DNA of 64,000 bases, taken from Minisyncoccia bacterium. Lineage in GTDB: Bacteria > Patescibacteriota > Minisyncoccia > Phycocordibacterales > UBA918. The notes beneath the pieces were generated by a model, which did not search any database, was not told where the DNA came from, and saw only the letters and a program-made list of their open reading frames with translations. The stretch spans positions 201,226 to 265,225 of the forward strand of contig JBKJIT010000004.1 of the NCBI GenBank assembly GCA_046598345.1, read 5' to 3'. Below, one piece after another: positions 5,089-46,015 of the stretch (its first letter is position 1; every line of letters starts with the position of its first letter). The position numbers were made by a program, and so were the translations under genes.

Positions 5089-5358
5089 TTAACGTTTCGT
5101 CAACTTTTTAGCTCGGATAAGGGCAATTTTCTCATTTCGCGTGAGTTTCTTAATGGCTGCTTCACGTACCTGGGCCTCGCTTCGCGAAGCCCAGGTTTCC
5201 CTAAAAACAATCTCAATCGGAAAACGACCTCGTGTATATTTAGCACCTGTCTTCCCTTCCTTGTGCTCTCTGAACCGCCGGTCTACATCAGTGGTGACAC
5301 CAGTGTAGAGAGATGCATCACTGCACTTAAGAATATATACAAACCACTTTTGCATCAT
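5089..5358 (-). CDS. GIY-YIG nuclease family protein (UPF0213-like)
   Basis: WFVYILKCSDASLYTGVTTDVDRRFREH is a GIY-YIG motif. 89 aa. Confidence 0.75.
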   Translation of the reverse strand: MMQKWFVYILKCSDASLYTGVTTDVDRRFREHKEGKTGAKYTRGRFPIEIVFRETWASRSEAQVREAAIKKLTRNEKIALIRAKKLTKR

Positions 5359-5647: not shown

Positions 5648-6745
5648 TTAAATCAAAAACTCAATCACATCACCCTCCTTCACAATGTATTCCTTCCCTT
5701 CCGTACGGAGTTTTCCTGTAGAGCGTGCGACTGCGATTGAGCCAGCGTTTACAAGGTCGTCGAATGCCACGACCTGCGCGCGGATATACTTTTCCTTAAA
5801 GTCAGTGTGAATAGCAGCACCTGCCTCAGGTCCCGTTGCACCTTGCTTTACTGTCCATGCACGGGTCTCCTTCTCACCAGTTGTAAAATAAGACATGAGC
5901 CCCAGGCGATGGTAGCAGGCCTTAATAAGCGAATCAATTCCAGAGTCCAGGGTTGCATACTCACGACGGAACTCCGTTTTTTCTTCTTCTTCTAAATCTT
6001 TAAGTTCATTTTCAATACCTGCATCAATGAGTACGTACTCAGAGTGAGTTGATTCCATAAAATCCATGAGCTCAGTCCACCGGTCATCATTTGTCTCATC
6101 AAAATTGTATCCACTATTCTTCTTGTTGAGGACATAGAGAAACTGCTTCATCGTAAGCAGATGAAGATGCTTTATAAGCATGAGTTCTTCCTCATCCATT
6201 GGAAGTGTGTTTGCAAGTTTGCCACCTTCGAGGTGAGGGAGAAGTCGTTCAAGAAGCGCTTTTTCCTTTACTGCTGACTTGTCGCCCCTTCGTGCATCTT
6301 TTTCGACATTCTGGTGTCGCTTCGCAACGGTTTCACCATCGGCAAGAATTAGTTCAAGATTGATGACTTCAATATCGGAAAGAGGATCTACTGCACCACC
6401 TACGTGAATGACATCGGGATCATCAAAAATACGCACTACTTCTGCAATCATATCGACTTCTCGAATATTTGAGAGAAATTTGTTTCCAAGCCCCTCACCT
6501 TCAGATGCTCCCTTTACAATTCCGGCAATATCAACGAATTCAACGACTGCATGAATGACTTTTTCAGAACTTGAGATCGCTGCGAGTGTTTGAAGTCGCG
6601 GGTCGGGAACAGCAACAACCCCCACTGAAGGATCAATGGTACAGAAAGGGTAGTTTTCAGCGGGGACAGAATTCTTCGTGAGTGCATTAAAAAGCGTAGA
6701 TTTTCCTACGTTTGGCAGCCCTACAATTCCAACGGATAGTGACAT
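5648..6745 (-). CDS. ychF: ribosome-binding ATPase YchF
   Basis: [18 protein letters not shown] and the C-terminal TGS domain (VKEGDVIEF). Confidence 0.92.
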
Positions 6746-7076: not shown

Positions 7077-8149
7077 ATGAACTAGTATACGATACGAATA
7101 CCTGTCGTATACGTGGTTTTTGTGGTATTACATCAAGTATGGATACACTCCTTGTAGAAAAGGCAACTCAAAATGTGCGTGATATTCTTAGTGAGGCGAT
7201 TCTCTATACATCAGCAGAAAGGGCGCTCGTTGTATATGACACGGATTCGGAACTTGCACAGATTTTAGTTCAAGCATATAAAAACGCGCTTCCAGATGCG
7301 CGGTTTGTTGATTTCGGACAGTCACACAAAGATGAGATCATTGGACTTTTCAATTCACTTAGCCCTAAAGATCTTGTTGTGCTCATCCAAACATCAGATT
7401 TCAGGCTGAATGAGTTTCGAATACGGATTTATTTGTTTGAAAAAGGTCTTAAGGTCGTTGATCACCTCCACCTCTACCGCAATACTCCCGACTCTTACGA
7501 GACGTACATTGATGCGCTTGCGTACGATAGCGCATGGTATCGCGGTGTAGGTCGAAGGCTCAAAGGTATACTAGAAAAAACAGAAGAGCTCCGTATCATT
7601 GGCCGCGACACCACGCTCACTATTACAAAAGGACTTGAGGAGCCAAAACTGAACGTCGGAGACTACACTGGTATGAAAAATATTGGAGGAACGTTTCCTA
7701 TAGGGGAAGTATTTACTGAAGCCAAGGATTTTGGTGGAATGAATGGCTCGCTTCGCATTCACGCTTTTGCAAATATAGATTTCAACATTACTTTTTTCGA
7801 ACCTTTTACTATTCATATCACTGAAGGGATTCTTACAGGCTGGAGCGAGGACACCCCTCAGTCATTTATTGATGTAGTAGAACAGGTTCGAAGTCACGAG
7901 CGGGCACTCATCCGTGAAATTGGATTTGGAATGAATCGCGCAATTAGTCGTGAACGTCCACTTAAAGACATTACTGCGTTTGAACGTAATTTAGGACTCC
8001 ATGTCTCGCTAGGAGAAAAGCACAGTGTGTTTAAAAAACCTGGAATTAGTGCTGACAAAACTCGTTTTCACGTTGACCTCTTCCCTGCTGTTGATACCGT
8101 TTTTGCAGACGAGGAAATTATCTTTGAGAATGGTACGTACACCGTCTAA
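7070..8149 (+). CDS. M29-family aminopeptidase-like protein (AmpS/AmpT-like)
   Basis: FPIGEVFTEA, LIREIGFGMN and HVDLF resemble conserved aminopeptidase T blocks. This is a memory-based alignment. The start may be the internal Met at 7139. Confidence 0.45.
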   Translation: MTYELVYDTNTCRIRGFCGITSSMDTLLVEKATQNVRDILSEAILYTSAERALVVYDTDSELAQILVQAYKNALPDARFVDFGQSHKDEIIGLFNSLSPKDLVVLIQTSDFRLNEFRIRIYLFEKGLKVVDHLHLYRNTPDSYETYIDALAYDSAWYRGVGRRLKGILEKTEELRIIGRDTTLTITKGLEEPKLNVGDYTGMKNIGGTFPIGEVFTEAKDFGGMNGSLRIHAFANIDFNITFFEPFTIHITEGILTGWSEDTPQSFIDVVEQVRSHERALIREIGFGMNRAISRERPLKDITAFERNLGLHVSLGEKHSVFKKPGISADKTRFHVDLFPAVDTVFADEEIIFENGTYTV

Positions 8150-35189: not shown

Positions 35190-35217
35190 TGGCGGGCTTA
35201 ATGTTTAATTTCAGAGT

Positions 35218-35291
35218 GGGCCCGTAGCTCAGTTGGCTAGAGCGTCTGTTTTGCACTCAGAAGGTCGCAGGTTCAATTCCTGTCGGGTCCA
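35218..35291 (+). tRNA. tRNA-Ala (anticodon TGC)
   Basis: Manual cloverleaf: acceptor GGGCCCG/CGGGTCC with the G3:U70 Ala identity pair, D-arm GCTC/GAGC, anticodon loop TTTGCAC, T-arm GCAGG-TTCAATT-CCTGT. No CCA encoded. Confidence 0.88.
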
Positions 35292-35352
35292 CTCTGAAAT
35301 AAAACAAGTAGGTACGTAGCTAAGGCTTAACCTATTATATAGTTGGCTATTC

Positions 35353-35393: not shown

Positions 35394-35460
35394 AAGGTAG
35401 AAAAGTATGGGATATTTTTCTAAATCCTTGAGCATCCGCCAGCTGGCTGAGTGCGAAAAG
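35394..35460 (-). repeat. composite repeat (module 2 then module 1, inverted relative to the copy at 44637-44694)
   Basis: Reverse complement of 35426-35460 = ttttcgcactcagccagctggcggatgctcaagg, compared with 44637-44669 = tttcgcactccgccagctagcggatgctctagg. 35394-35420 is related to the GAAAGT...ACTTTC palindromic module. Confidence 0.55.
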
Positions 35461-35632
35461 TGTACTGACCATGTTAATGCTGTCGAGGGCACAATTTAAT
35501 TGCCCAAAGCTGGCATTACTATCGTATATCCACGCACTGTGAAGAAATAAAAAATTGATTAGAGTGATACACTTTACTAATGATATTGGTGAACGTCCTA
35601 ATGAATAACATTTAATAAAATTTAAATACATT

Positions 35633-39133: not shown

Positions 39134-42022
39134 TTATTGGTTTAATATTGTGCGTGTTTTTGGCCCTACGGTACCTGTGGGCTCAATTACATGCTTTAGT
39201 TGCAGGAATTTGACGGCAGATTTAGTTAGGTCTCCAAAGTAACCGGTTATGTCTCCATTGTAAACCTCAAGTGAGGTAAGTAGCTTCTGAAGCTCCGACA
39301 CCTCGGTTCCGCTAGAGCCAAGTTGTAGATCTTTTGTAAAAAAGTATTTAGAAGCACCCATGACTTCTGAAGATACTGTTTGTAATACGGTTAAATCTAC
39401 TTCATTACTCAATAAACCGTTCGGAAGCTGTGCAGAGATTTTGTGGAGCCCTATACTTGTTACTGGAACATAAAAGGTGAGTTGGTTTTCAGAAGGAGTG
39501 TTAATAAGAGCTGGTCGATTCTTATCGAACATGATGTAGGTAACACCTCTCAAATTTATGCCTTCTACGGTAATTAATCTGCCGATTTCAGCTGAACTTG
39601 CGGAAATTGATCCAATATATGGAGCGTCGCTGCACTGATCTAGGAGGATTTTAATACTGGAAATATCAGAAGCAGTAATGGTAAGACTTGCATTTAGATC
39701 AGCTTTGTCATCGAAACCAGAATTGGAAGAAATAAGCCCAGACTTTGATTTAACATATTCAACATCTTTTGCGTCAATAGAACCATCTCCGTTTACATCG
39801 GCATTTGAACACGTTGGTGCAGCAGTTCCTGAAGTACTTACAGTGTAAGTGAGAACCGTACAATTATTCGTTTCACTTGATTCACTCACAATCCCTGAAG
39901 AATCAACACAGTGCCTCACTTGCAGAGTCCCTGATTTAGTAAGTGCTAAACTAGCTGAAGTATCAAGGAACCGTCCTCCTGCAGCTGTTGTTCCTCGAGG
40001 ACTTGTAGTATTCAATGCTTCCCATGGACTTATGGTGTCGTAGCGGTAAGAAAAACTATCGACATACATTGACGGTGCATTTACTGTACTGCTATTTTTT
40101 ACTTCAGCAGTAAATGAAAGAGTCTGCCCCACTGTATAAACTGAGCTATTTCCTGAAACGAGAGTAAATGCTTGGCTGATAAGATCGGGTAATGCTGCGT
40201 TAGTTTGCGTAACCGATACAGAAACTGTTGCAGATTTAGAAACTGAGCCAGCTGAATTTGAACAAGTAATAGTATAGGTTGTCGTTTCTGTAGGATTTAC
40301 AATCGCTGTCGCAGAAGTCTTGCCAGAATCCCATCCAACATTCGTGGCGCTACAATAATCGGCACCAGTGGACGAAAGTGTTAGCGAACTACTTTGCCCG
40401 ACAGTGATGCTTGACGGTGTTGCTGCAAAATTTGTGATTATTGGTAGCGTCGATAAAGTATTTGGATTAACACTATACACGACTATAGTGCAATTATTGG
40501 TTTCGTTGGATTCGCTTACAATCCCAGAAGAATCAACGCAATGTTTTACTTCCAATAATCCTGCCTGAGTAAGCATGAGTGATGATGAGGTATCGAGGAA
40601 CCTACCCCCCGCAGCAGTGGTTCCGCGAGGACTTGTGGTATTGAGGGTAATCCAAGAACCGGACGACCCGTAGCGGTACGAGAATGTATCAACATACATT
40701 GATGGAGACTGGGTAGTGCTATTGTTTTTTACTTCTGCCGAAAATGAGATAGTTTGTCCGACAGTGAGCACTGGACTGGGGCCCGAGCTAAGACCAAAGG
40801 TTTGGCTAATGAGATCTGGCAATCCGGTAGTAACTTCAGTTACGGGTGCACACGCATTGAGCCACGAGAGGATTGAGCTTGCTTCGGTCCGTCTTGCTCC
40901 AGTGCCAACCGCTCCAGTTGTGAGCGAACTCCCTGTAAGCCCTGTGAGATACCTTGTGATTATAAGTCCGTCTGTGAGTGAAGAAATTTTGTCATCACCG
41001 TCTGCGTCGTAATCATGAGTTGCAATAAAGTTTTCAATGGCCGTTGAAGTTATGCGCGTAGCACCTGCCCCAATCACACCAGTAATGAGCTGGCTCCCTC
41101 GGTAGGAGTTAAGGTACCGAGTAATTAACAAGCCATCTGTAAGCGCATCTTTTTTTCCGTTACCATCGATGTCGAGGTTACAAGCTTCTACAGTTGAATC
41201 TGAATCCAATGAAGGTGTACCCCCAATTGTGAAAGGCCCAGTTTGGCCATCACCAGTTCCACCTCTATGGATTCCTGTGCTGTAATCGTAGACAGTCAGG
41301 GCGTATGCTCCATTTTTTAAGTTCGGATCATGGGCCCAAACAAAACTACCTGTATTTGAGATGCCTTGAGCAAGATATTTTGCTACTTGGCCGTTTTTTT
41401 CTCCTGATGCAAAAAAAAGTGCAATACCTATTTTATGATCGCCTAATCCTGACGAGGTCCATCTTATAGTTGCAATTGGTGAATTACCCGTTCCTTTTGT
41501 ACCACTATTATCTAAACTATACCCTGCTTGTGGATAGGTTACAGTAATAGCTGGCGTTTCAGCAACTGGAAGAGGTATGTCTGACTCGCATGTGTAAAAT
41601 GCATTTAGTTTTGCACGTGTACTTGGGCCCGTCTTCCCTGTTCCATAGAGAAGGCCATACGGTGCAAGGATTTCGCTCGCATACTTTTGTTGGAAGCCCG
41701 TTACGGCAGCCGCAGTTGCCTCGTCGTAGGATGTGGAATCATTGGAGTTAAAACCTTGAAGCTTAAGTGCTGTCTTTAATGCAATCACTTCAGCGCCGGA
41801 ATCACCCACATTCAAGTTATATGTAAACTCATGACAAAACGATCCACTGGATGTCTCACCAGTAGTTCTGCCAGTCATAGTATTAACTTGTGCCTGAAGT
41901 TGCGTAATGAGAGCAAGCAACTGCTGAATTTGTGCAAGCATTTCGTCAATCGTTGCCGCCTTCGAAACAATGGGTGTAAATAGTGCGAATACAAGCAAAG
42001 TGCTAACAAGGAGTTTTTTCAT
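39134..42022 (-). CDS. large secreted surface protein: signal peptide, PG_binding_1-like domains at both ends, dockerin/EF-hand-like Ca-binding repeats, two CARDB-like domains
   Basis: MKKLLVSTLLVFALFTPIVSKA signal. PG-binding-like VGDSGAEVIALKTALKLQGF... and C-terminal LQLGSSGTEVSELQKLL... Asp/Gly-rich repeats DIDGNGKKDALTDGLLITRYL and DYDADGDDKISSLTDGLIITRYL. Two ~115-aa paralogous segments ending ...SESNETNNC / ...SESSETNNC (CARDB E-x-NE-x-NN signature). Confidence 0.7.
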   Translation of the reverse strand: MKKLLVSTLLVFALFTPIVSKAATIDEMLAQIQQLLALITQLQAQVNTMTGRTTGETSSGSFCHEFTYNLNVGDSGAEVIALKTALKLQGFNSNDSTSYDEATAAAVTGFQQKYASEILAPYGLLYGTGKTGPSTRAKLNAFYTCESDIPLPVAETPAITVTYPQAGYSLDNSGTKGTGNSPIATIRWTSSGLGDHKIGIALFFASGEKNGQVAKYLAQGISNTGSFVWAHDPNLKNGAYALTVYDYSTGIHRGGTGDGQTGPFTIGGTPSLDSDSTVEACNLDIDGNGKKDALTDGLLITRYLNSYRGSQLITGVIGAGATRITSTAIENFIATHDYDADGDDKISSLTDGLIITRYLTGLTGSSLTTGAVGTGARRTEASSILSWLNACAPVTEVTTGLPDLISQTFGLSSGPSPVLTVGQTISFSAEVKNNSTTQSPSMYVDTFSYRYGSSGSWITLNTTSPRGTTAAGGRFLDTSSSLMLTQAGLLEVKHCVDSSGIVSESNETNNCTIVVYSVNPNTLSTLPIITNFAATPSSITVGQSSSLTLSSTGADYCSATNVGWDSGKTSATAIVNPTETTTYTITCSNSAGSVSKSATVSVSVTQTNAALPDLISQAFTLVSGNSSVYTVGQTLSFTAEVKNSSTVNAPSMYVDSFSYRYDTISPWEALNTTSPRGTTAAGGRFLDTSASLALTKSGTLQVRHCVDSSGIVSESSETNNCTVLTYTVSTSGTAAPTCSNADVNGDGSIDAKDVEYVKSKSGLISSNSGFDDKADLNASLTITASDISSIKILLDQCSDAPYIGSISASSAEIGRLITVEGINLRGVTYIMFDKNRPALINTPSENQLTFYVPVTSIGLHKISAQLPNGLLSNEVDLTVLQTVSSEVMGASKYFFTKDLQLGSSGTEVSELQKLLTSLEVYNGDITGYFGDLTKSAVKFLQLKHVIEPTGTVGPKTRTILNQ

Positions 42023-42101
42023 TAAAAGTGATTAGATTTATATACTTTCAGCATATCACCTTCATGATAAAAATATGAAGTTCTCCCCTATTCCAAGGTG
42101 A

Positions 42102-44117
42102 TTACCTGTTTAAGAGGGCTCGAGTTTGTGCACCTATAATTCCAACCGCAGGCAGCTGAAAGGCTCCCTGGAAGTGAAGCGCAGCGAGTTTAGTAGCCTC
42201 ACCAAAGAATCCGGTTGGCTCTCCAGAGAAAAATCCTTTTTGAGTAAGTACTTTCTGAAGTTCAGTAACTTCAGTACCACTGTCTCCAAATTGTAAAGTT
42301 TTAGTAAAATTATATTTGTACGTTCCGAGTACCTGACCGGGTGTCACAATCATAAATATGGTATTGCAGTTATTCACCTCATTTGATTCAAGCGTTACAT
42401 TGGTTGTGTCTACACAGTGCATCACTTCTAGTACGCCACTTTCCGATAGATAAATTTGCCCAGAAATGTCCATGAAACGACCTGATTCTGCTGTGGTCCC
42501 GTGCATGCCGGTGTTATTAACTGTTGTCCAAGGAGTTCCTGATGCATACCTGTAATAAAATGTATCAATGTAACCACTCGGAGCCTGTGCATATATTGAG
42601 TCATTTTTAACTTCTGCAGTGAAATTAACTGATTGTCCTTTTACCAAACTACCGGAAGACAACCTGAGTGCTTGACTGATAAGGTCTGGTCTTGTTGTGG
42701 TTCCGCCAGGTTGTACAACAACTGTTACAGAAGATGAAGCTGAGCCGTAAGAGTTAAAGCAAGTGACGCTATAAGTAGTTGTCTGCTTGGGATAGAAAAA
42801 CTGAACTGCAGTCGTAGCGTTCGTTGCATTTGCTGTATTCTTACATGCAGTGGCATTCGAACTTGAATACTTTAGGGCAGTATAATTTCCTGCTGTAATT
42901 AAATTTGGTGAAGCTGAAAGCGTCACTGTAGGATATGAGGGTTGTGGTACCGGTTGATTAATGCCGCGAATCATTTGATAGTTAGTAGCAAATTCTCCGA
43001 TAGGAAGGGGCAGATATTGATATCCAAGCGTTGTTGTAGTGCTGAAGTTAAGACTAGTCAATTCAGCTCTTATTGACTCCGTAAAAGCACCATTCAATTT
43101 CATAACTCCGTTAAAATTGAACGAACGTGTTGTTCCTGCGGCAATTTTATACAAATTCACTGGCTCTTCTAAAGAAGAAGATTCTAAAGATGCACTGACG
43201 ACAGAAATATATCCAGGAACTATTCCATCAGGTTTTTTAGCAGTAAAAGTAAGTCCCAAGCCTGTACTCGTCGACATGGCTGTAAACGTTGAATTTCGTC
43301 CAATGTACACATCCACTACTGGAGCGGTTACCTCAAACTCAATCGAATATACACCATGCACTTCTCCCGAATCTCCTATGGGTCTACTCTCTGCACTTGA
43401 ATCTGCAAAATCAATAATTGGATCTGGGATGGGAATTATTTTTACTGTAACAATATTACTCTGTCCATTTTCATTTGTTATATAAAGAGGATACGTGTTC
43501 CCAGGCGTAAGAGAAAATGGAACTGTAATCATAAGTTGAGTGTCTGTCGCCCACTTTGCTTTTGCTTGCATCCCTCCAATGGAAGCAGAAATTGCATCAA
43601 TAGAATTAATTCCAAGATACTTTCCATTAATAACCAAGTCCCCTGATGCATATGCTTCAAAACTTTGCGCTGCATAAGCTTCTGTTGATGCGATATACGG
43701 TTTGTATGAAAGTCCTGATGTTTGGGCAAGATTGAAATAATCGTTGCTATAGTCACACAATGGTTTAGAGGAAACAGGATCAATAGTCCCGTTATCGCAG
43801 ACGGCAACTTTATATTTACCAGGAGCAACAGTTGCAGGAACAGCAAGTGAATCAATTTGTTTTTTCTTTACATTGGTAAAGAGTGGAATTTTTGACACGA
43901 CACTCGCATTCATTGGGCTGTACAAAAAGGCAACCGGTTGTTTGGGAACATGGGTAGCACTCCAGGTAAAAGGAAGAAGATTTACATCTTTTCTTCCTAA
44001 AGAAATGGTCTCACCACCGTTAGGGGTAAGAATAGTAATTGAGGGAGTCTGCGCGGATGAGACTGCCGGCATAAGTAAACCAAGCGCAAATATAAAGCTT
44101 AGAAGCAGTTTTTTCAT
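42102..44117 (-). CDS. paralogous secreted surface protein with one CARDB-like domain and C-terminal PG_binding_1-like domain
   Basis: Signal MKKLLLSFIFALGLLMPAVSSA. CARDB-like segment ...LESNEVNNC. C-terminal LQFGDSGTEVTELQKVL... Its upstream region is homologous to the upstream region of the 39134-42022 gene (shared agcatatcacc...tatgaag...cccc). Confidence 0.7.
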   Translation of the reverse strand: MKKLLLSFIFALGLLMPAVSSAQTPSITILTPNGGETISLGRKDVNLLPFTWSATHVPKQPVAFLYSPMNASVVSKIPLFTNVKKKQIDSLAVPATVAPGKYKVAVCDNGTIDPVSSKPLCDYSNDYFNLAQTSGLSYKPYIASTEAYAAQSFEAYASGDLVINGKYLGINSIDAISASIGGMQAKAKWATDTQLMITVPFSLTPGNTYPLYITNENGQSNIVTVKIIPIPDPIIDFADSSAESRPIGDSGEVHGVYSIEFEVTAPVVDVYIGRNSTFTAMSTSTGLGLTFTAKKPDGIVPGYISVVSASLESSSLEEPVNLYKIAAGTTRSFNFNGVMKLNGAFTESIRAELTSLNFSTTTTLGYQYLPLPIGEFATNYQMIRGINQPVPQPSYPTVTLSASPNLITAGNYTALKYSSSNATACKNTANATNATTAVQFFYPKQTTTYSVTCFNSYGSASSSVTVVVQPGGTTTRPDLISQALRLSSGSLVKGQSVNFTAEVKNDSIYAQAPSGYIDTFYYRYASGTPWTTVNNTGMHGTTAESGRFMDISGQIYLSESGVLEVMHCVDTTNVTLESNEVNNCNTIFMIVTPGQVLGTYKYNFTKTLQFGDSGTEVTELQKVLTQKGFFSGEPTGFFGEATKLAALHFQGAFQLPAVGIIGAQTRALLNR

Positions 44118-44278
44118 CAGAATGAGTTTAGATTAATATGCACTTAGCATATCACCGTTCTCACAATATTATGAAGATGTCCCCAATGTCAGCCAATTTC
44201 AGCCCGATCTGATGGATTTGCTGGCTCTCTTTACTTACATTTAACTAAAAACAAATGCTTTTTGTTACACTTTCCTCG

Positions 44279-44451
44279 TTCATCGGGCTGTAAAAAAGTT
44301 TTCAACCCTCGTCTCGAAAGTAATATCCATATAAATATGATATTCTTTCTCGACTTCGGGCTGGATAAAGCATTTATACATCTCCTTTTCATTCGGTCAC
44401 AGTATCAAATAATGTATTTGTGATACTATGACACTCATTCATCGGGCTGTA
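44279..44451 (+). repeat. three direct copies of (c)(a/g)TTCATCGGGCTGTA-type motif upstream of tRNA-Pro (44279-44293, 44352-44365, 44436-44451); inverted CAGCCCGA at 44697-44704
   Basis: Read directly. Copies 1 and 3 are 15/16 identical. Copy 3 runs into a tRNA-like fragment. Confidence 0.55.
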
Positions 44452-44481
44452 GTATACCGGTAGTACGCGTCCATGTCGGGG
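44441..44481 (+). other. degenerate partial copy of the tRNA-Pro 5' half (acceptor/D-arm/anticodon-stem 5' side)
   Basis: gggctgtaGTATAccGGTAGTACGcgTCCATG compared with the tRNA cggggtataGTATAgtGGTAGTACGtaTCCATG, located 14 bp upstream of the intact gene. Confidence 0.45.
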
Positions 44482-44494
44482 AAAAAATAATTGT

Positions 44495-44565
44495 CGGGGT
44501 ATAGTATAGTGGTAGTACGTATCCATGGGGTGGATATAGTCTGAGTTCGATTCTCGGTACCCCGA
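44495..44565 (+). tRNA. tRNA-Pro (anticodon GGG)
   Basis: Manual fold: acceptor CGGGGTA/TACCCCG, D-arm GTAT/GTAC, anticodon stem TATCC/GGATA with loop ATGGGGT (U33, GGG, G37), T-arm CTGAG-TTCGATT-CTCGG, discriminator A. Confidence 0.82.
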
Positions 44566-44578
44566 CAATTAATTTTTC

Positions 44579-44599
44579 CAGAAGCATGAGATGCTTCTG
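44579..44599 (+). other. perfect 9-bp hairpin cagaagcat-gag-atgcttctg downstream of tRNA-Pro
   Basis: Read directly; preceded by aattttt. Confidence 0.4.
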
Positions 44600-44636
44600 A
44601 TGTAGACCGGTTCACATCCTACAGATGCTGTATACC

Positions 44637-44694
44637 TTTCGCACTCCGCCAGCTAGCGGATGCTCTAGGTCTTGCGAAGCTCTGCTTCTCACCC
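44637..44694 (+). repeat. composite repeat (module 1 at 44637-44669 plus module 2 at 44670-44694), same family as 35394-35460, 26522-26548, 34241-34267
   Basis: See the paired alignment given for 35394-35460. Module 2 tcttgcgaagctctgcttctcaccc resembles ggtcttgcgaaagtctcccagactttctcaccc at 34238-34270. Confidence 0.55.
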
Positions 44695-44720
44695 GGCAGC
44701 CCGACAAACACAAAGGAAAT

Positions 44721-45020
44721 TTAATTAAGTCTCAGCCCATCTATCTTCTTTGCAAGTTCAAAGTCTGAATGCGTCAGACCTTTTGCATCATGCGTCGTAA
44801 GTGTGATCTTCACCTTGCCATACGATAGCTCCACAACTGGGTGATGGTTTAAGATTTCTGCATGTACAGTCACCTTTGCAATAAAGGCGAGGCCATTTAT
44901 GAATGAAGGGAAAAGAAACGTCTTAGAAAGTTCAGTCTTCTTTTTATTAAGTTGCCACTCCGAAAGAGCCTTTAATTTTTTATCAATATCTTTTGCGAGA
45001 AGTGCTTTCAGTGTACTCAT
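44721..45020 (-). CDS. pterin-4a-carbinolamine dehydratase (PCD/DCoH)
   Basis: 99 aa with NGLAFIAKVTVHAEILNHHPVVELSYGKVKITLTTHD, a PCD signature. Confidence 0.78.
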   Translation of the reverse strand: MSTLKALLAKDIDKKLKALSEWQLNKKKTELSKTFLFPSFINGLAFIAKVTVHAEILNHHPVVELSYGKVKITLTTHDAKGLTHSDFELAKKIDGLRLN

Positions 45021-45040
45021 ACAGTAAGAATACCATGTTC

Positions 45041-46015
45041 CTATGGGCGCTCTAGTGCGTCAATGAGAAGATGAGTTATAAAATCCTTGTACGTTCCACC
45101 AACTGCAAGAATTGCTTTTGGCAATAATGAGTTAGGTGTTAATCCTGGAAGTGTATTAACTTCGAGAAAATAGATTCCGTCAGGGGCAACTATAAAGTCT
45201 GACCGTGAATACTGCGAGAGATCAAGTGTTTCATGTGCTAGTTTCGCCCACGCTTCCAGAGTTGCTTTTGTTTCATGATTAAATCTCGAAGGGCAGATTT
45301 CCTCTGTTTCACCCGAATACTTCACCTCTCTATCAAAAAACTCAGCGTGAGGCGGTGGTACGATCTCAATTGGTGGTAGTGCGTAAAGTGCCGTATCTCG
45401 ATAATTCTCAACTACACCACAAGTTGCTTCCCTTCCCTCAATTCGTGCTTCTACAATGACCTCTTCAAAGTTCTTCAGTGCATCGGTAAGCGCTTGTGGT
45501 AGAAGTGCAGGATTTTTGACCATCATCGTTCCCACGGAAGAACCAGATGAAACTGGTTTAATAACATACTGTGGACCAAATCTATCAACGATCTTATTCG
45601 AAATGGCGTGGACATCATGGAGAGCGTCCCTCCTCACGATCATATGCGGAGCCATTTTGATCCCGGTATCCTTCAGCATGTCTTTCGTAAGGCCTTTATT
45701 CATTGCTATTCCGGAGGCCAGTGCCTTACTCCCTGTATATTTCACCTTGTAGCGATCGAGAATTCGCTGGACAGTTCCGTCTTCTCCGTATGCCCCGTGA
45801 AGCGCATTAAAAACGACGTCTACTGCGTGGAGTACCTGCTCGGGGAGACGCTCCCGTCCATCAATGAGCCACTCTCCGCGTTTCGTAATTACAATATCAA
45901 TAGGATCAAACCGCGAGCGATCGAGAGCAGCAAGAACTCCTGCACCGGTTTCGAGTGAAATCGGGTATTCGTCACTTGGCCCGCCGCGCAAAACTGCTAC
46001 CCGTATGTTATGCAT
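45041..46015 (-). CDS. ddl: D-alanine--D-alanine ligase
   Basis: VAVLRGGPSDEY...ALHGAYGEDGTVQ...ATP-grasp...FLEVNTLPGLT. Confidence 0.9.
   Translation of the reverse strand: MHNIRVAVLRGGPSDEYPISLETGAGVLAALDRSRFDPIDIVITKRGEWLIDGRERLPEQVLHAVDVVFNALHGAYGEDGTVQRILDRYKVKYTGSKALASGIAMNKGLTKDMLKDTGIKMAPHMIVRRDALHDVHAISNKIVDRFGPQYVIKPVSSGSSVGTMMVKNPALLPQALTDALKNFEEVIVEARIEGREATCGVVENYRDTALYALPPIEIVPPPHAEFFDREVKYSGETEEICPSRFNHETKATLEAWAKLAHETLDLSQYSRSDFIVAPDGIYFLEVNTLPGLTPNSLLPKAILAVGGTYKDFITHLLIDALERP

Follow-up and report, generated by a model that had tools for sequence, protein, structure and literature searches.

The tRNA-Pro(GGG) locus

The stretch of DNA analysed here, 64,000 nucleotides (nt) of contig JBKJIT010000004.1 from a Minisyncoccia bacterium and hereafter called the window, carries an intact tRNA-Pro(GGG) gene that lies inside or behind broken older copies of such a gene. 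The host belongs to the Candidate Phyla Radiation (CPR; Patescibacteria), and the top relatives of its Ddl protein come from metagenome-assembled genomes labelled Paceibacteria or Saccharibacteria, the closest at 76% identity. In plus-strand order, tRNA-Ala(TGC) (35218-35292) is followed by three genes that encode solute-binding, Cache/HAMP and DUF948-like proteins, by two surface-protein genes, and then by the relics and tRNA-Pro(GGG), beyond which pterin-4a dehydratase, Ddl, UvrC and UvrA are encoded on the minus strand. For comparison, loci from metagenomes (L numbers) were collected with a 25-mer of the native-type tRNA-Pro 5' half, giving 120 loci, in most of which the 25-mer falls at the beginning of an intact tRNA-Pro (GGG, CGG or TGG); a Ddl scan of a genome collection that does not include the window's own genome gave two loci only. 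An independent assembly, L001, shows no difference from the window over 18 kb. The ortholog most used below is that of L003, a relative whose Ddl is 69% identical to that of the window and whose tRNA-Pro(GGG) reads CGGGCTGTAGTATACCGGTAGTACGCGTCCATGGGGTGGATGTAGACCGGGTTCGATTCCCGGCAGCCCGA. The composite consists of the following parts.

44443-44475, plus strand: nt 1-33 of an old tRNA-Pro(GGG), CGGGCTGTAGTATACCGGTAGTACGCGTCCATG, comprising the acceptor 5' strand, the D arm, the anticodon-stem 5' strand and A-T-G of the loop
44476-44494, plus strand: left flank of the cassette, homologous to that of L065; its stretch GGAAAAAATAATTG (44480-44493) is complementary to the right flank
44495-44566, plus strand: live tRNA-Pro(GGG), intact and presumably functional, acceptor strand CGGGGTA (ARAGORN; 57.7 bits with the Rfam tRNA model)
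44566-44598, plus strand: right flank of the cassette, in which CAATTAATTTTTCC pairs with 44480-44493 and is followed by the hairpin AGAAGCAT-GAG-ATGCTTCT (44580-44598)
44599-44619, plus strand: nt 39-50 of the old tRNA-Pro, GATGTAGACCGG (44599-44610), then a degenerate T-loop, TTCACATCC
44620-44691, plus strand: ins2, 72 bp inserted into the old gene's T-loop, with the palindrome CCGCCAGCTAGCGG at 44646-44659
44692-44705, plus strand: 3' end of the old tRNA-Pro, nt 59-72, CCCGGCAGCCCGAC, comprising the T-stem 3' strand, the acceptor 3' strand and the discriminator

Over every part that is kept, the old gene is identical to a bona fide tRNA, that of L003 (33/33, 12/12 and 14/14 positions), and its 5' piece also agrees at 31/33 positions with the tRNA of a second relative, L113. 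Both ends of this gene had been glimpsed in a preliminary description of the window made from its letters: a motif copy running into a tRNA 5'-half stretch, which is the 33-nt piece at 44443-44475 and matches nt 1-33 of the live tRNA at 27/33 positions, and an inverted CAGCCCGA downstream, which at 44697-44704 is the 3' acceptor strand of the older gene. A covariance-model search had been proposed there as a check on the fragment. The Rfam generic tRNA model gave no score for the 33-nt fragment, even when it was offered as 3'-truncated; this is no refutation, because half a tRNA holds too few bits for a generic model, and a perfect match to a real orthologous tRNA, which supports the fragment, is the stronger test.

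Nucleotides 34-38 of the old gene are missing, so excision of the intervening DNA cannot restore the old tRNA, and a split or intron-containing functional tRNA is thereby ruled out. A group I intron was likewise rejected (no Intron_gpI match at E<=10 in 43000-46000, an insert of 123 nt, joined flanks that lack nt 34-38), as was a bulge-helix-bulge intron, since no excision restores the anticodon loop in the window, L095, L040 or L052. No other RNA family was matched in an Rfam search of the window region. A 14-mer match between 44597-44610 and 5278-5291, within a distant open reading frame (ORF) of the GIY-YIG family, was judged to be chance (E = 0.12).

What separates the halves is a 123-bp cassette (44476-44598) that starts directly after nt 33 of the old gene and is made up of the left flank, the intact tRNA, the complementary right flank (14-bp inverted flanks) and the 19-nt hairpin AGAAGCATGAGATGCTTCT; the ortholog-type 3' pieces come next, split by ins2. 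The cassette is predicted to fold as a cloverleaf on a 13-bp acceptor-stem extension (z = -5.9). The live tRNA is at most 87% identical to every other tRNA-Pro in the locus set, and the ortholog-type tRNAs of L003 and L113 differ from one another at 3/72 positions (counted from the sequences). As the relic is identical to its ortholog, the live gene divergent and the ortholog-type tRNAs of relatives near-identical, it is the relic that looks native and the live gene that looks foreign. Positions 44279-44705, which include the upstream copies described below, are thus probably the leftovers of successive in-place replacements of tRNA-Pro(GGG), the live gene residing on a cassette of ~123 bp within its broken predecessor.

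A native relic beside a divergent live gene favours acquisition of a xenologous copy over local duplication followed by decay, which predicts the opposite. That alternative, in which leader and tRNA units were duplicated in tandem and then decayed differentially to leave 5' stubs upstream and 3' stubs downstream, would need no foreign DNA or mobile cassette. Several relatives speak for it: tandem tRNA-Pro genes are common among them, L118 and L016 have a duplicated upstream flank and then a decayed tRNA copy, the partial copy has the sequence of the intact one in L064, L072, L012 and L082, and the arrangement in L113 fits reciprocal loss. The sequences at the window's own relic and live gene nevertheless fall the wrong way round for it, and further difficulties arise from the nested loci considered below.

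Two relatives show the locus in other states. L113 is syntenic with the window on both sides and has the leader module here called X, followed by an uninterrupted ortholog-type tRNA-Pro(GGG). L065 is colinear with the whole composite: its old gene is likewise broken after nt 33, its cassette is related but encloses another inner tRNA, and both the hairpin and the T-loop insertion recur. Insertions homologous to ins2 stand at the same place in both. Inserts of 120-200 nt at the T-loop position, between an intact tRNA-Pro and a duplicate of its last 12-20 nt, were also seen in L003 (7769-7942), L063, L107, L118, L016, L009, L061 and L113; several share the motifs GTCCGGAA..GGAGCGATG..CGCGAG, and an Rfam search of these inserts gave no match.

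Nested tRNA genes in related loci

Of 151 tRNA-Pro genes from metagenomes, a sample biased by the probe, about 16 show the nested design: those of the window, L065, L079, L060, L095, L052, L040, L013, L007 (two), L072, L047/L117, L083, L045, L044 and L055. In these loci a 5' fragment of one tRNA-Pro precedes an intact one by 42-58 nt (up to ~140 nt in L072 and L083), and the complementary 3' half comes next in most, with a 25-34-nt 5' fragment and matching outer 3' halves in L040, L047, L052, L072, L079, L083 and L095. Inner and outer isoacceptor types agree wherever the outer type can be read. At the junctions of nested loci other than the window, 2-17 nt of the target have been lost, with no duplication. 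One locus, L083 (~6225-6480, minus strand), has three layers, namely a 5' fragment, an outer tRNA-Pro and an inner tRNA-Pro, and the design extends to tRNA-Val within tRNA-Val relics (L037 4622-4694; L090 ~1884), there with the same CCCCGTTAGA stalk family that surrounds tRNA-Pro(TGG) in L095. Among the 111 tRNA-Pro genes with adequate flanks, an exact copy of the gene's own first 9 nt stands upstream in 14 and a copy of its last 12 nt downstream in 17, where chance would give ~0.1-0.2. Full-text searching of the literature turned up no account of one tRNA gene lying within another, and the recurrent tRNA-in-tRNA architecture in CPR bacteria is accordingly one that we have not found described.

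The inner tRNAs are bounded by 11-15 contiguous Watson-Crick pairs whose sequence varies by locus (shuffled controls average 2.7), and minimum-energy folds of L095, L052 and L047 are predicted to consist of the outer acceptor stem and D arm, a stalk of 20-25 bp, the inner cloverleaf and the outer T arm. The cassette ends CTTGCCCC...GGGGTGAAG are kept across unrelated loci and also delimit an 'empty' hairpin of 36 nt that L095 has in its relic T-loop; palindromes from the stalks are found at other sites too. A second cassette type (window, L065, L079, L060) has in common a covarying AGAAGnnn-loop-nnnCTTCT hairpin, which in L065, L079 and L060 comes after the cassette. By the measure of a miniature inverted-repeat transposable element, terminal inverted repeats are present (14 bp in the window, 11-15 bp at other loci), albeit abutting the tRNA rather than the outer junction, and target-site duplications are absent, the junctions losing 2-17 nt.

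These loci bear again on tandem duplication with decay. Both outer anticodon-stem strands abut the cassette in L095, L040 and L052, which tandem copies cannot yield, and the cassette ends are kept across unrelated loci, across isoacceptors and in tRNA-Val. Duplication alone is therefore an unlikely source of the composite.

Order of this kind might also be maintained because the composite works as a unit, its outer halves and stalk being kept to scaffold the processing, stability or regulation of the inner tRNA, or as an intron-like insertion. The outer pieces are indeed perfectly conserved, the folds strikingly ordered and the distance from outer start to inner start near-constant at 42-58 nt, and between the window and L065 the outer acceptor and T stems carry compensatory changes (G7/C66 vs A7/T66). 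Yet no excision restores a tRNA, nt 34-38 being absent in the window and 2-17 nt gone elsewhere; in L044, L055 and L083 outer parts have decayed or are missing, and the T arm of the window is degenerate. The conservation could stem instead from recent origin, or from gene conversion with CGG or TGG paralogues that share the same ends. A functional composite thus seems highly unlikely.

Extended acceptor stems are found outside the nested loci as well. The tRNA-Ala(TGC) of the window has a leader/trailer helix of 9 bp, TTTCAGAGT (35209-35217) with ACTCTGAAA (35291-35300), that lengthens its acceptor stem, and the tRNA-Ala genes of L113 and L123 have helices of different sequence in the same place, which amounts to covariation. 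Paired leaders are unusual among bacterial RNase P substrates; in this clade a leader/trailer helix is probably a native feature of pre-tRNAs.

Leader modules and the neighbouring gene block

Upstream of the composite lie further truncated tRNA starts, each at the end of a leader. The features of this region and the adjoining surface-protein genes are as follows.

39134-42022 and 42102-44117, minus strand: surface-protein paralogues
43909-43922, plus strand: outlying motif copy TTCATTGGGCTGTA with 1 mismatch, inside the coding sequence of surface protein A (42102-44117, minus strand), where it encodes YSPMN; status uncertain
44200-44207, plus strand: isolated CAGCCCGA, a CGGGCTG-type tRNA 3' acceptor strand with discriminator, upstream of every 5' relic
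44215-44292, plus strand: X', a degenerate X-like leader (by alignment) that ends in TTCAT, then the first 9 nt of a tRNA, CGGGCTGTA (44284-44292), forming the first motif copy
44293-44355, plus strand: leader module Y, containing CAACCC (44303-44308) as a decayed partner strand, a sigma-70-like site at 44314-44341 and a hairpin that spans ~44311-44353
44356-44363, plus strand: second motif copy TCGGGCTG, a T and the first 7 nt of a tRNA-Pro copy broken off after nt 7-8
44364-44441, plus strand: leader module X, with a hairpin at 44396-44435, homologous to the DNA abutting the tRNA-Pro(GGG) 5' end in L113 and to the X units of L003

The preliminary description had counted three copies of a motif within 220 bp upstream of tRNA-Pro, and these are borne out: TTCATCGGGCTGTA occurs exactly at 44279-44292 and 44438-44451 and in degenerate form at 44352-44365, where the exact 8-mer TCGGGCTG is held at 44356-44363. 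Counting both strands of this 8-mer, TCGGGCTG/CAGCCCGA, there are five occurrences, all within 44200-44704 and none elsewhere in the 64 kb, against an expected 1.1, and 0/100 shuffles gave five; together with the perfect matches to orthologous tRNAs, these statistics exclude a chance origin of the copies. Modules X and Y end in ...TTCAT or ...CATT, followed by the first 8-10 nt of the tRNA. As each ends at a truncated tRNA start, the repeated TTCATCGGGCTGTA motif is the junction between leader and tRNA start. The isolated CAGCCCGA at 44200-44207 is possibly the remnant of a lost upstream tRNA-Pro copy.

Similar leaders are found in relatives. The upstream array of L003 likewise runs X-T-X-T-Y-tRNA, at least in its sequenced units (about 100 N stand at 7476-7575 within the X-T array), with a 3'-end duplicate 170 bp downstream. 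Module Y is homologous to the tRNA-Pro leaders of L003, L017, L052, L055, L058, L099 and L009, where it stands directly upstream of tRNA-Pro, and its central hairpin covaries (8 loci). Many Y-type leaders open with a 'microhelix', in which the tRNA's first 9 nt lead into a short hairpin (AAGC-AAA-GCTT) and then into CAGCCC, the 3' acceptor strand; after this comes a strongly covarying 12-15-bp hairpin ~10 nt before the tRNA; such leaders were seen at 44283-44355 of the window, at 7621-7696 of L003, and in L052, L055, L058, L088, L099, L009 and L017. The CAGCCC of the leader could alternatively pair with the tRNA 5' end.

The outlying copy at 43909-43922 is of less certain status. Only ~0.02 hits to the fixed motif are expected by chance, and over 43838-43930 the one-mismatch motif is flanked by sequence resembling the end of an X-type leader and the start of Y, all antisense within the N-terminal coding region of surface protein A (amino acids 66-70, YSPMN). 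A tRNA-leader relic may underlie the 5' part of this gene, or chance may account for the match; a protein database search with the first 144 amino acids gave no homologues. The converse idea, that the relics are fragments of a surface-protein pseudogene, was not adopted: the tblastn match (11/24 amino acids, E = 0.1) arises because the YSPMN-coding 14-mer and X-type leader homology are common to both. Between the two paralogues, the upstream regions (44128-44187 and 42032-42091) share 75% identity across 60 bp, which means that the duplication took in the promoter or 5' untranslated region.

The preliminary description had read the partial copies as footprints of integrase-mediated insertion and excision, with the surface-protein genes as possible cargo. 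They are tRNA-Pro relics and do mark insertion or replacement of DNA, and to that extent the reading stands; its attachment (att) site component is not supported. Classical tRNA-integrating elements reportedly duplicate the 3' part of the tRNA (Williams 2002). At this locus the repeats are 5' ends and one-sided, and no distal direct repeat of the tRNA 3' portion was found; nor is there a partner repeat at the far end of the gene block (near 35.3 kb), the motif copies lying within 220 bp plus one at -590 bp. Between the 5' and 3' relics lies no island, but a 123-bp cassette with an intact tRNA. Pfam scans of the 48 ORFs spanning the window revealed no integrase, recombinase or transposase, and the L001 gene table lists none. 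The motif spacing of 60-80 bp is set by conserved leader modules that occur also in relatives without the adjacent surface-protein genes. Viral contigs gave no matches; both the outer-type and the inner-type 23-25-mers are absent from them, and a phage origin was rejected.

The cargo proposal has limited support. A 9.2-kb block at 35.3-44.4 kb (SBP_bac_1, Cache/HAMP, DUF948-like and two PG_binding/CARDB surface proteins) is missing from the syntenic L113, which has 265 nt between its tRNA-Ala and tRNA-Pro. G+C is slightly lower over 34-40 kb and 42-44 kb (0.385-0.40 vs ~0.44 in most of the window). With tRNA genes being classical integration sites (PMC9897764), these are the points that an integrase could claim. 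The edges of the block, however, are marked by neither an integrase nor a tRNA-derived repeat, its arrival has no tie to such repeats, and the place between tRNA-Ala and tRNA-Pro is a variable region that holds different genes in L003, L004 and L005. Integrase scars with surface-protein cargo are, on this evidence, a most improbable explanation.

The same block and the tRNA-Pro complex are bracketed by an inverted 40-bp repeat, 87.5% identical, at 35426-35465 (minus strand, beside tRNA-Ala) and 44630-44669 (plus strand, in ins2). Its core palindrome CCGCCAGCTRGCGG, present too in L013 (relic T-loop), L035, L056 and L093, resembles a dispersed element of the repetitive extragenic palindromic (REP) kind. 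This repeat, and an orientation of tRNA-Pro that differs among relatives, suggest inversions and other rearrangements here.

Proposed replacement of tRNA genes in place

The route by which the cassette entered is one that we infer. A hairpin-flanked tRNA minigene from a related lineage would enter the anticodon-loop region of the resident gene, and would be kept because it supplies the very tRNA it destroyed. In the transcript, the leader/trailer helix could act as a processing stalk and shield the live cloverleaf from the homologous halves of the relic. One candidate driver would be homing-type double-strand-break repair with the conserved tRNA halves as homology arms, and another hairpin-based transposition. 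A stand-alone GIY-YIG gene (PF01541; 89 amino acids, 5089-5358, minus strand) is the sole small GIY-YIG in the window. In L012 and L082, small GIY-YIG homologues lie exactly between the 5' partial tRNA-Pro and the intact one; in L047 (also L117/L069) the homologue flanks the nested tRNA-Pro.

Successive replacement has to be set against several observations that weigh the other way. Firstly, the window has no mobilising enzyme linked to the cassette, the GIY-YIG gene being 39 kb off; target-site duplications are absent from the cassette junctions, and the old gene has lost 5 nt; and the helix sequence of the window is single-copy in the 64 kb. Secondly, in L113 the hairpin and an ins2-bearing 3' relic sit downstream of an intact ortholog-type tRNA. 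Their presence there implies that the 3' pieces are old; those of the window may belong to a shell that predates the 33-nt 5' piece, in which case the latest event may have been a replacement of nt 34-72 instead of a clean insertion. Thirdly, the sample imposes its own limits: no presence/absence pair was found among close strains, the nearest relative having 76% Ddl identity; L001 and the window are possibly one data set, given their identity; and locus frequencies are biased, the 25-mer probe having been taken from a native-type tRNA.

The cassette can be compared with several known systems. Integrative elements at tRNA genes (Reiter 1989; the sublocation classes of Williams 2002; reviewed in PMC9897764) bring foreign DNA into a tRNA gene, preserve its function through the sequence of the insert, leave a partial tRNA scar and prefer the anticodon loop and the T-loop, as in the reading proposed here. 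The scar in the window is nevertheless 5' and not 3', the insert is 123 bp without a recombinase and with a complete tRNA of different sequence, and the order is a nested 5' half, whole tRNA and 3' half as against tRNA, island and 3' fragment. Group I introns with homing endonucleases, frequent in bacterial tRNA anticodon loops in metagenome-assembled genomes of unnamed phyla (bioRxiv 10.1101/2020.01.27.920355), have in common with the cassette the anticodon-loop target, a plausible homing logic and, in some related loci, a GIY-YIG gene at the equivalent position; the cassette, in contrast, has no ribozyme, is too short, carries a replacement gene, and its host gene is not spliced back. Archaeal bulge-helix-bulge introns, intron transposition and split or tri-split tRNAs (Fujishima 2009, 2010; cited in PMC10714607) offer short helix-closed inserts at anticodon-, T- and D-loop, related inserts at several sites, and a composite, highly paired precursor. 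Here, by contrast, the host is bacterial, the junctions have no bulge-helix-bulge, and outer nucleotides are missing so that no mature outer tRNA results.

Two further likenesses concern the stalk. As with REP sequences and REPINs, the cassette stalks CCCCACACCTA... and CCCCGTTAGA... and the ins2 core CCGCCAGCTGGCGG recur elsewhere in CPR contigs as hairpins on their own, although no gene of the REP-associated tyrosine transposase (RAYT) type was seen and the window's stalk has no second copy in the 64 kb; to our knowledge, REPINs have neither a tRNA gene in the loop nor tRNA loops as targets. As in the RNase III stalks of rRNA operons, leader and trailer form a long helix with the mature RNA at its tip, an arrangement found also, with covariation, in the tRNA-Ala of this clade. 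The difference is that stalks of this kind, which might be cleaved here too, are known from rRNA, whereas bacterial tRNA genes are not known to have them as a rule.

A broader reading, offered tentatively and with less than even confidence, is that hairpin-flanked tRNA minigenes form an undescribed class of selfish element in CPR bacteria. Such elements would invade the anticodon arm of a gene for the same isoacceptor, kill that gene, become irreplaceable by supplying its replacement and remain open to re-invasion, leaving Russian-doll shells (5' stubs upstream, 3' stubs downstream) and driving xenologous turnover of single-copy tRNA genes in minimal genomes.

For the window itself, the relics are no evidence for a prophage or an integrated island. 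The tRNA genes of tiny CPR genomes are single-copy and essential, and an insertion that destroys and replaces such a gene at once is unlike both the splicing of introns and the 3'-end restoration practised by integrases. If replacement of this kind is real, it would account for the horizontal replacement of tRNA genes; it would generate many pseudo-tRNA fragments that mislead annotation, and ARAGORN-type 'intron' calls without a ribozyme may be such composites; and it would provide a concrete substrate on which to test the roles of the small GIY-YIG proteins and palindromic repeats that abound in CPR bacteria.

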